From Alphaproteobacteria bacterium (GTDB lineage: Bacteria > Pseudomonadota > Alphaproteobacteria > CAAGCB01 > CAG-977): 64,000 nucleotides of DNA. Positions 50,528-50,643 of this stretch are shown piece after piece; within the stretch, counting starts at the first letter, position 1; each line of letters begins with the position of its first letter. Under the pieces are notes generated by a model. That model was given only the letters and a program-made list of their open reading frames with translations, ran no database searches and was not told the origin of the DNA. The stretch is taken from positions 23,787-87,786 of the forward strand of contig JAFZYY010000015.1 in NCBI GenBank assembly GCA_017616015.1, written 5' to 3'. A program made the translations under genes and the position numbers.

Positions 50528-50562
50528 AAAAAAAGCTCAAAACGCCGTGTCAAACGGAGCTT
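50528..50562 (-). terminator. Intrinsic terminator forming the riboswitch expression platform upstream of guaD
   Basis: Minus strand AAGCTC-CGTTTGACACGGCGTTTT-GAGCTT followed by a U-tract. Confidence 0.65.
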
Positions 50563-50568
50563 CAAGCA

Positions 50569-50632
50569 CTCATAGCAGAACACGGTCCTGTTCAGTAGAA
50601 ACTTCCTCCGGCTTTAAGAGGAATTATATGAG
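50569..50632 (-). ncRNA. Purine (guanine-type) riboswitch aptamer, variant
   Basis: Minus strand CTCATATAATTCCTCTTAAAGCCGGAGGAAGTTTCTACTGAACAGGACCGTGTTCTGCTATGAG. P1 is CTCATA/TATGAG, J1/2 UAA, J2/3 GUUUCUAC and the discriminator is C74; it precedes guaD. Confidence 0.85.
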
Positions 50633-50643
50633 CCGTTTTTGAT

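Follow-up and report, generated by a model that had tools for sequence, protein, structure and literature searches.

Among the purine riboswitches, those that respond to adenine can activate expression, at the level of translation in the case of Vibrio vulnificus add and at the level of transcription in that of Bacillus subtilis pbuE/ydhL. In purine aptamers generally, the contact between the loops L2 and L3 is regarded as near-invariant and as needed for pre-organisation at physiological Mg2+. Most known guanine riboswitches are OFF switches (PMC9295807, section 4). The present analysis concerns a candidate guanine riboswitch that an initial annotation had noted in 64,000 nucleotides of alphaproteobacterial DNA (contig JAFZYY010000015.1, assembly GCA_017616015.1; this whole stretch is hereafter called the window). 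The element lies on the minus strand, ahead of a guanine deaminase gene (guaD), and consists of a three-stem aptamer of the purine type (about 50633-50568), followed by a hairpin and a U7 tract that ends 25 nt 5' of the guaD ATG. A functional guanine-class riboswitch of the purine, three-way-junction type is the best explanation of the sequence features described below. From modelled folds, the comparison of relatives and metabolic logic, I put the probability that it turns guaD ON when guanine is abundant at roughly 0.55.

Several residues of the purine aptamer serve as landmarks. U34, G37 and G38 in L2 and C60, C61 and A65 in L3 are called universally conserved in PMC3764141, while the roles of U22, U47, U51 and C74 in the pocket, C74 marking the guanine class and U74 the adenine class, are set out there and in PMC9295807. 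With Mg2+ present, ligand binding persists in a B. subtilis aptamer that carries the loop changes G37A/C61U (PMC3239184), which, taken together with the conservation of the loops, indicates that the L2-L3 contact matters but is not absolutely required. Ordinary guanine aptamers bind hypoxanthine and xanthine more weakly than guanine (PMC9295807, section 7). In the variant classes guanine-II and xanthine-II there are insertions in J2-3 and J3-1, accompanied in xanthine-II by U51G (PMC9295807, sections 4 and 7), and in the 8-oxoguanine (8-oxoG) class, which is linked to 8-oxoguanine deaminase, an amidohydrolase deaminase, the equivalent of U47 is absent (PMC10556655). Several of these Paenibacillus variants are ON switches, placed before genes of purine salvage or catabolism (PMC9295807, PMC10556655). 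The atypical 2'-deoxyguanosine (2'-dG) aptamer of Mesoplasma florum keeps both G37-C61 and G38-C60 (PMC3159443).

A guanine-class aptamer below the Rfam threshold

In a sensitive Infernal scan of positions 50400-50800, the element aligned end to end with the Rfam purine model RF00167 (model 1-102, window 50651-50553) at 33.2 bits (E=0.0013), as compared with a gathering cut-off of 37. The minimum free energy (MFE) fold also yields a P1-P2-P3 three-way junction of family dimensions. Judged by the features of the guanine class, the element thus has the junction and the pocket, and falls short in score. That it would score low with the standard model had been anticipated in the initial annotation, and the same holds for the homologues identified in relatives, 12 of 12 of which are likewise sub-threshold. 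No other purine-like match occurs in the genome (2.09 Mb, 34 contigs), for which a clade-specific covariance model (R1, described below) likewise gives a single match.

The stem P1 is formed by GCUCAUA (positions 15-21; 50627..50633) and UAUGAGU (positions 75-81; 50568..50574), as supported by the cmscan alignment, the fold and covariation. J1/2 (UAA, 50624..50626; UAUAAU with its flanks) and J2/3 (GUUUCUAC, G46-C53, 50595..50602) match the RF00167 consensus exactly, and U22, in J1/2, as well as U47 (50601) and U51 (50597), in J2/3, are therefore kept. C74 is retained in J3/1 (50575..50576), so that all four pocket residues are as the initial annotation had read them. P2 is a 7-bp hairpin, UUCCUCU/GGAGGAA (50603..50623), backed by alignment, fold and covariation, and P3 (50577..50594), backed by alignment and covariation, comprises 5 bp, GAACA/UGUUC, and a U.U mismatch between positions 54 and 72. 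Because the pocket is that of ordinary guanine riboswitches, guanine is the most likely ligand, with hypoxanthine and xanthine as further possibilities.

The gene that follows (49238..50503, ATG at 50503) encodes a 421-aa protein that is likely a guanine deaminase, in agreement with the initial annotation. The open reading frame (ORF) finder places the start at a GTG (50512), three codons before this ATG; homologues start M-T/S/A-V-Q. The protein contains the Pfam domain Amidohydro_1, and its best NCBIfam model by far is TIGR02967, guanine deaminase, at 354.8 bits, just below the equivalog cut-off of 375.4. The next-best family, 5'-deoxyadenosine deaminase, reaches 186 bits; the 8-oxoguanine deaminase model, whose cut-off is 532, gives 104 bits. 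Of the solved structures, 2i9u is the nearest (363.8 bits), ahead of the human, yeast and Escherichia coli guanine deaminases, while a solved 8-oxoguanine deaminase gives only 75.6 bits.

The element departs from the guanine class at the junction, where consensus A73 is G and where the P3-closing pair 54/72, a Watson-Crick pair in the class, is the U.U mismatch, flagged as non-standard by cmscan. The initial annotation had listed both changes, neither of which turned out to be special. Riboswitches with scores of 78.7, 75.1 and 73.9 bits have this Y-G-C-U-A junction too, and the G73/U.U form consequently does not exclude membership. When the junction pattern combined with Y-G-C-U-A-Y-G at J3/1 was sought in species-representative genomes, it was found in at least 119 stretches. 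Among the matches listed, outside the guaD leaders discussed below, 37 downstream ORFs were scanned: 13 encode xanthine/uracil-family permeases (Xan_ur_permease), three a dihydropyrimidinase/hydantoinase, and others guaA-type, purE, purL-type, adenine deaminase or PnrA-like binding proteins. To judge from these sequences, ordinary guanine aptamers widely take the G73 form. Whereas position 73 is invariably G and 72 a pyrimidine, 54 can be C, U or G, so that its partner may vary between sequences, being 73 in some and 72 in others.

The dihydropyrimidinase/D-hydantoinase genes lie behind G73-type aptamers in contigs from Oscillospiraceae, Christensenella sp. and a Bacillota metagenome-assembled genome (MAG) (L018, L064 and L069; TIGR02033, 523-531 bits, above cut-off), and in Petrotoga (L019) such an aptamer precedes a carbamoyltransferase-like gene, possibly reflecting riboswitch control of anaerobic purine or pyrimidine catabolism. 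Matches from Paenibacillaceae (Paenibacillus L026, L041, L049, L037, L066, L071 and L085) and L031 share AGUCUCUAC and an extra pyrimidine before GCUACG and precede xanthine/uracil-family permeases; the best model for L026 is 2dG-II, at 49.4 bits against a cut-off of 60. These matches probably represent one of the published Paenibacillus variant classes.

Stems that covary around an invariant junction

Covariation was assessed on 45 distinct homologues, taken from the guaD leaders of Alphaproteobacteria and Oscillospiraceae. P1-P3 positions are paired in 95.9% of cases, as compared with 86.3% in shuffles and 38-51% in slid controls, and 11 of the 19 pairs have changed on both sides, which none of 500 shuffles matched. 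The junction nucleotides, including J1/2 and the GC of J3/1, are invariant in 45/45 sequences, although the guaD proteins are just 56-86% identical. Within the alphaproteobacterial clade, the P1 pair 17/79 has changed from U-A to C-G and three different P2 stems occur, again around invariant junctions. Such compensatory changes argue against a relic.

Three states of the kissing loops

The loops are a different matter. L2 is UAAAGCC (50616-50610) where the consensus has AAUAUGG, and L3 is GGACCG (50588-50583), 6 nt in length, in place of consensus CCGUAAA. All six conserved loop nucleotides are gone, and the canonical contact (U34, G37 and G38 with C60, C61 and A65, forming two G-C pairs and two base quadruples) is consequently missing. 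L2 ends with CC (C37 and C38, 50611-50610) and L3 starts with GG (G60 and G61, 50588-50587). The bases are thus as given in the initial annotation, which had interpreted them as a reciprocal swap of the kissing pairs.

A clade-specific pattern retrieved 15 more copies of the element from metagenome contigs, and the resulting alignment, A3, holds 19 distinct alphaproteobacterial aptamers from genome and metagenome loci (L149 and L153 were fetched later). They sort into three loop types. Type i comprises the window's element, L147, L089 (= G008), L108 (= G006) and L149 (= G011), with UAAAGCC, AAAGCC, GGUGCC, GACGCC and GAAGCC as L2 sequences and GGACCG (three times), GGGAUU and AGGUC as L3 sequences. 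In all five, L2 ends with GCC and GG stands at or beside the 5' end of L3, the remaining loop positions being variable. In type ii (L003, L005, L010, L011, L013, L136, L143 and the terminator-less L002), L2 begins with (G)CG and L3 is (A/G)AGUCCG, and in type iii (L004, L006, L007, L008, L135, L141 and L148), L2 is GCGUAUA, GCGCUA or similar and L3 is AA(G/A)AUCGC. The loops of L153 are like those of types ii and iii. None of the 15 rows of A3 outside type i has either GG/CC or CC/GG. The complement that all 15 share is L2 5'-(G)CG with L3 CG(C/U)-3', which is in the opposite register from canonical G37-C61 / G38-C60 and which, in type iii, could form 3 bp (GCG with CGC). In the Oscillospiraceae homologues, among the matches listed, L2 ends with GG and L3 starts with GCC in 26/26. 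Each loop state is conserved within its own sub-lineage. Since type iii is sister to types i + ii in the guaD tree (see below), the CC/GG state of the window is derived within the clade; since type iii is found in genomes of two genera, the loop types follow genus labels inexactly.

To judge from the conservation of position in type i, L2 and L3 of the window's sub-lineage are probably joined by two Watson-Crick pairs of reversed orientation, C37-G61 and C38-G60. Three points weaken the case for this pairing. The longest L2-L3 Watson-Crick match is 2-4 bp, a length that shuffled loops reach with p of 0.06-1.0, canonical sequences included, and the 2-bp match of the four type-i sequences tested has a shuffle p of 0.69-0.93; complementarity within a single sequence is therefore uninformative, and only positional conservation remains. 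The five sequences that support CC/GG are closely related and amount to about one evolutionary event, just as the loop types, being sets of close relatives, amount to about two. Finally, in the MAFFT alignment the canonical CC of the Oscillospiraceae falls on G61-A62 of type i and not on G60-G61, because P3 of the Oscillospiraceae is read one pair longer. Covariation in guaD leaders thus leaves the proposed swap standing for the five closest relatives (5/5), as a conserved position, and does not carry it to the rest of the clade, whose 15 other members pair their loops differently; nor can 2 bp be told from chance. A bolder and rather doubtful proposal is that this peripheral tertiary lock was re-invented at least twice after horizontal transfer while the pocket stayed frozen: L2 5' GCG would first have paired with L3 3' CGC or CGU, in the opposite register from all described purine aptamers, the canonical register would then have returned with reversed CC/GG, and in some lineages the L3 sequence GUCC would serve as the anti-Shine-Dalgarno strand of an add-like ON platform.

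Distribution and origin of the leader-guaD cassette

When 60 relatives were searched with RF00167 at E<=1, 13 gave a match, none above the cut-off, and 12 of the matches are true homologues (26.9-35.7 bits) located before the orthologous gene; the match at L014 was rejected as spurious. At the protein level, guaD orthologues (68-91% identity) turned up in 20 of 27 relatives belonging to the same family and in none of the 34 other families of the class that were sampled. Inspection of the upstream DNA in the eight guaD-bearing genomes that lacked an RNA match uncovered the aptamer in five (G006, G008, G011, G014 and G017). The other three (G020, G025 and G026; L154-L156 = G020:C71, G025:C6 and G026:C43) have a short leader without it and a guaD product of 68-72% identity. 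The aptamer is accordingly found before orthologous guaD in 17 relatives or, counting the window's own genome, in 18 of 21 guaD-bearing genomes. In G020 the same methyltransferase gene lies upstream as in the window, which suggests that the riboswitch was lost there.

The model R1, built from the 45 homologues, was run on 151 genomes, one per family across the class, with stricter filters and as a sample rather than a census. It matched two genomes, that of the window and one of the same family, and none of the 149 from other families. The hosts of the clade thus form one family of gut/rumen Alphaproteobacteria MAGs. Outside this family, the largest coherent group among the pattern matches listed, to which the Oscillospiraceae counts given here and below refer, consists of MAGs of Oscillospiraceae, Oscillibacter and Dysosmobacter. 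The ORFs downstream of these leaders are guaD orthologues (20 full-length at 56-65% identity, and 7 partial), and the leaders share with the window G73 and GUGU(U/C)C right after P1; the 54/72 combination in 26 of them is G.U in 22, C.U in 3 and C.C in 1. All five that were tested pass the Rfam cut-off (43.7-58.9 bits), while in the same RF00167 run four of four alphaproteobacterial loci stayed without a match at E<=0.01. In the maximum-likelihood guaD tree (27 proteins), the seven alphaproteobacterial sequences group together as a clade (100/100) amid Bacillota; this tree is rooted at the midpoint, its deeper forks are without resolution, and its rows were picked by the RNA pattern.

Since, among the matches listed, RNA and gene alike have their closest counterparts at Oscillospiraceae guaD loci, and in view of the distribution, the simplest history is that leader and guaD likely moved once, as a cassette, from Oscillospiraceae-like Clostridia into this alphaproteobacterial family, the direction of transfer being read from the tree and the distribution. 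The joint acquisition of riboswitch and guaD put forward in the initial annotation is well supported by the restriction to one family, by the position of the guaD clade among Bacillota and by the shared leader motifs. Remodelling of the loops after transfer is the best explanation of the difference between these sequences.

In five of the Oscillospiraceae leaders (L025, L083, L060, L091 and L015), an A-rich stretch 5' of P1 (e.g. GAAAAAG) appears by eye to be complementary to the U-tract region of the terminator (CUUUUUC); in L091 both sides have changed in step (AAAAGGA / UCCUUUU).

Direction of control

From 5' to 3', the leader comprises a promoter-like site, an A-rich start (AAAAACGG), the aptamer, the hairpin with U7, a Shine-Dalgarno (SD)-like sequence (GAGGAAAGG, 50512..50520) and the ATG at 50503. 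The putative -35 box, TTGACT (50667..50672), is overlapped by the stop codon of the upstream methyltransferase ORF and is separated by 17 nt from a putative -10 box, TATAGA (50644..50649); CTTGAC followed 17 nt on by TATAxA is conserved in 12 homologous leaders. The -10 box implies a transcript start only about 0-5 nt 5' of AAACGG (50633..50638), the 5' flank or P0, whose last G is the first nucleotide of P1. AAACGG would hence stand at the very 5' end of the transcript, provided that the predicted promoter is correct. The intrinsic-terminator-like hairpin (50567-50535; 50528..50567 with its U tract; -15.3 kcal/mol) starts directly after P1. It consists of a 9-bp outer stem with three G.U pairs and a 4-bp inner stem, CCGU/ACGG, precedes the U7 tract (50534-50528) and shows compensatory changes among the five closest relatives.

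The initial annotation had proposed that AAACGG acts as an antiterminator strand by pairing with CCGUUU (50557-50552). Both sequences exist, they are complementary, and CCGUUU does lie inside the terminator hairpin. The energies do not favour such a mechanism, however. The evaluated energies are -17.6 kcal/mol for the aptamer, -15.3 for the terminator and -32.9 for both together, while the aptamer plus the AAACGG:CCGUUU helix comes to -20.1 kcal/mol; the helix thus adds about -2.5 kcal/mol, to be set against the -15.3 of the terminator. Moreover, the terminator is clear of P1, and the pairing is conserved just in type i and its nearest type-ii relatives. RNAalifold, applied to 12 terminator-bearing leaders, recovered the aptamer and the inner terminator hairpin only, with no conserved antiterminator or P0. 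Of the ON switch put forward in the initial annotation, the direction is favoured by what follows, whereas the mechanism proposed there is not.

The preference for activation derives from SD-sequestering platforms of relatives, together with the substrate-induction logic of a catabolic deaminase. Two leaders of the family, L002 (G001:C6) and L153 (G017:C57), have no terminator. Their MFE folds contain a 12-bp helix that sequesters P3-3', J3/1 and P1-3' by pairing with a downstream anti-sequence, with the L3 sequence GUCC paired to the SD, and these folds are 8.4 and 3.2 kcal/mol, respectively, more stable than the aptamer fold. In the model, these are add-like translational ON platforms in which kissing-loop sequence doubles as anti-SD. 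The MFE fold of type-iii leaders places the SD (GGGCU) in a helix with the P1 5' strand (AGCCC). In the Oscillospiraceae, the 5' arm of the terminator starts within the P1 3' strand in 21 of 25 leaders (at position 80 in 13, 78 in 6, 77 in 1 and 81 in 1) and at position 82 in the other 4, which lost their closing C to the U-tract rule (L111 was left out), and in 19 of 24 no antiterminator rivals the aptamer fold until the right arm has been transcribed. For the window, the MFE fold of the full leader pairs 5' ACGG-C-UCAUAU with AUAUGA-CCGU at the start codon (-41.8 kcal/mol, as compared with -40.6 for the aptamer fold). With the aptamer forced, SD and AUG became more accessible in 16 of 18 leaders and less so in one, with one unchanged; in the window, accessibility rose from 0.67 to 0.69. 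These figures carry little weight because they are uncontrolled and because forcing alone removes pairing partners. One can picture a mechanism in which ligand binding would lock P1 and, with P1, the 5'-terminal ACGG-C-UCAUAU. Without ligand, this strand would be free to pair with the left arm of the terminator or with the start-codon region AUAUGA-CCGU, and the latter pairing would make translation of read-through transcripts ligand-dependent.

Several observations weigh against activation by a riboswitch in this leader. At gathering thresholds, an Rfam scan of the whole 64-kb window returned no match, and a simple promoter/terminator scanner made no call on either promoter or terminator, its sole call within the element being the P2 hairpin, as terminator-like. 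The deaminase misses the equivalog cut-off. Three guaD-bearing family members lack the aptamer, so that control is dispensable. The terminator does not overlap P1 and fits with the folded aptamer, and because the two are compatible a simple thermodynamic model predicts termination with or without ligand. Finally, in an 88-nt transcript the best fold (-22.5 kcal/mol, as compared with -21.8 for the aptamer) pairs J2/3 AGUUUC with GAAGCU of the terminator and AAACGG with CCGUUU, which is the layout of an OFF switch.

This last observation is the core of an alternative in which aptamer and ligand are the same but the sign is reversed: free J2/3 AGUUUC, J3/1-P1-3' and AAACGG would form an antiterminator with GAAGCU and CCGUUU until the ligand captures these strands and lets the terminator form. 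RNAfold slightly prefers the antiterminator fold at 88-98 nt, where it is the MFE fold in the snapshots from 90 to 98 nt as well as at the terminator-loop cut, and the same type of fold is preferred in four of the five type-i leaders and in L005 and L011 (dE 0.7-4.0 kcal/mol). Full compatibility of aptamer and terminator is also what is seen in classical OFF guanine switches, the majority type noted above. Yet these energy differences are inside the error of the nearest-neighbour model, and the GAAGC complementarity belongs to one sub-lineage, being absent in L003, L010, L013, type iii and the Oscillospiraceae leaders listed. The ON-type sequestering folds of L002 and L153 and the 19 of 24 Oscillospiraceae homologues without an antiterminator speak against this scheme as well, and shutting down a guanine-degrading enzyme at high guanine would be poor logic. 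Repression by guanine is thus unlikely.

Two further explanations leave the sign aside. The aptamer could be functional and prefer xanthine, hypoxanthine, 2'-deoxyguanosine or another purine derivative by virtue of its G73/54-72 junction or its loops. Xanthine-II, guanine-II, 2'-dG and 8-oxoG are classes that did arise by single changes near the pocket (PMC9295807, sections 4 and 7; PMC10556655), every one of the 45 guaD leaders combines G73 with Y/G54 and Y72, and the deaminase falls just short of its equivalog cut-off. But the four ligand-contacting nucleotides are all canonical, J2/3 and J3/1 are without the insertions of xanthine-II and guanine-II, U47 is present, unlike in the 8-oxoG class, the G73 junction also occurs in 74-79-bit riboswitches and before classical guanine-regulon genes, and the nearest solved relatives of the enzyme are guanine deaminases; a preference for a ligand other than guanine is very improbable on this showing. 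Slightly less probable still is a decaying relic that lost its loop contact after transfer and no longer switches, its hairpin and U7 acting as a constitutive attenuator or as the terminator of the methyltransferase gene. The loss of all six conserved loop nucleotides (conserved according to PMC3764141), the three loop states in one family, the three family members with guaD and no aptamer, and a terminator that is independent of P1 in this leader are what a relic would lead one to expect. The junctions, however, show 100% conservation across 19 distinct aptamers from Alphaproteobacteria, the proteins of which diverge by as much as 23%, P1 and P2 have undergone compensatory changes, each loop state is maintained in its sub-lineage, and the loop mutant of the B. 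subtilis aptamer retains ligand binding with Mg2+ (PMC3239184). Activation by guanine thus remains the preferred account.

Genomic surroundings

A promoter-like site of its own precedes guaD. The gene faces a DUF1796 ORF in convergent orientation, and upstream lies a TehB/TPMT-like methyltransferase ORF. The latter (50669-51283, minus strand), which adjoins the guaD promoter, encodes a 204-aa S-adenosylmethionine-dependent enzyme with Methyltransf_25/11 and TehB matches and weak TPMT matches, for which a role as thiopurine/purine methyltransferase is conceivable. Its synteny with guaD is common to the alphaproteobacterial clade and absent at the Oscillospiraceae loci. Elsewhere in the window, positions 47352-48512 (plus strand) hold a fused IspD-IspF, a bifunctional gene of the methylerythritol phosphate pathway, which presumably fits an alphaproteobacterial host.

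Four animal-gut DNA runs hold most of the stretch, and one metatranscriptome holds 5% of the sampled words; the metatranscriptome contig matches only 44 nt within the coding region, with less than 90% likeness. Contigs of two of the animal-gut DNA runs have T in place of the window's C at position 50510, in the SD-ATG spacer, and are otherwise identical over 50300-50760 where covered.

Comparison with known systems

In the searchable literature, no report was found that ties guanine riboswitches to guaD or that describes reversed or relocated kissing loops, although the supplementary files of PMC9295807 and PMC10556655 could list such variants. The family described here is a clade of real-looking purine riboswitches that fall below the Rfam threshold solely through their loops, which implies that threshold-based surveys under-count riboswitches after horizontal transfer and in Proteobacteria. 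It also links guanine sensing to guanine catabolism, through guaD, both in the Oscillospiraceae, which are abundant anaerobes of the gut, and in gut Alphaproteobacteria that are uncultured. These natural aptamers keep the pocket while replacing every conserved loop nucleotide in three ways within one family, and so provide material with which sequence can be separated from geometry. If the lock was indeed re-invented, the "universally conserved" kissing loops of purine aptamers would be replaceable modules, and loop sequence could be co-opted into the expression platform. The interest of the system lies in a clade that Rfam thresholds miss and in how a tertiary contact turned over once the cassette had been horizontally transferred; its reach is limited in that no new ligand or mechanism class is indicated.

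The closest relatives among the matches listed, the guaD leaders of Oscillospiraceae/Oscillibacter, have in common with the window the orthologous gene, G73, a 54/72 combination that is non-Watson-Crick or wobble, GUGU(U/C)C and a terminator that abuts P1. They differ in having canonical loops, in scoring above the Rfam cut-off and in the overlap of the terminator with the P1 3' strand in 21 of the 25 listed, which the window lacks. With the adenine ON switches, the element shares ON logic for a purine-handling gene, and the platform of L002 and L153 is add-like; however, it has C74 and not U74, which argues for guanine-type specificity, and the platform of the window is a terminator without aptamer overlap.

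Guanine-II, xanthine-II and the 8-oxoG class are built on the same scaffold, but their changes affect pocket and junction whereas those of the window are in the peripheral loops. Its junctions are without insertions relative to the RF00167 consensus and U51 is kept, contrary to guanine-II and xanthine-II, and it differs from 8-oxoguanine riboswitches in its full J2/3 (GUUUCUAC) and in a gene product far from the 8-oxoguanine deaminase cut-off (104 vs 532 bits). The 2'-deoxyguanosine-I aptamer of M. florum is off consensus in its loop-loop architecture too, although in the window both G-C pairs have been replaced. Guanine-I (RF00167, B. subtilis xpt type) is the class with which the element shares the junction, J1/2, J2/3, C74, a P2 of 7 bp, an L2 of 7 nt and a P3 of 6 positions, and from which it is set apart by a sub-threshold score, the absence of every conserved loop nucleotide, its alphaproteobacterial host, a catabolic gene and a direction of control that is probably ON rather than OFF. 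The class has bona fide members in the Oscillospiraceae guaD leaders, from which the element would derive, and the most fitting description of the element is that of an aptamer descended from guanine-I whose pocket is canonical and whose periphery has been remodelled.

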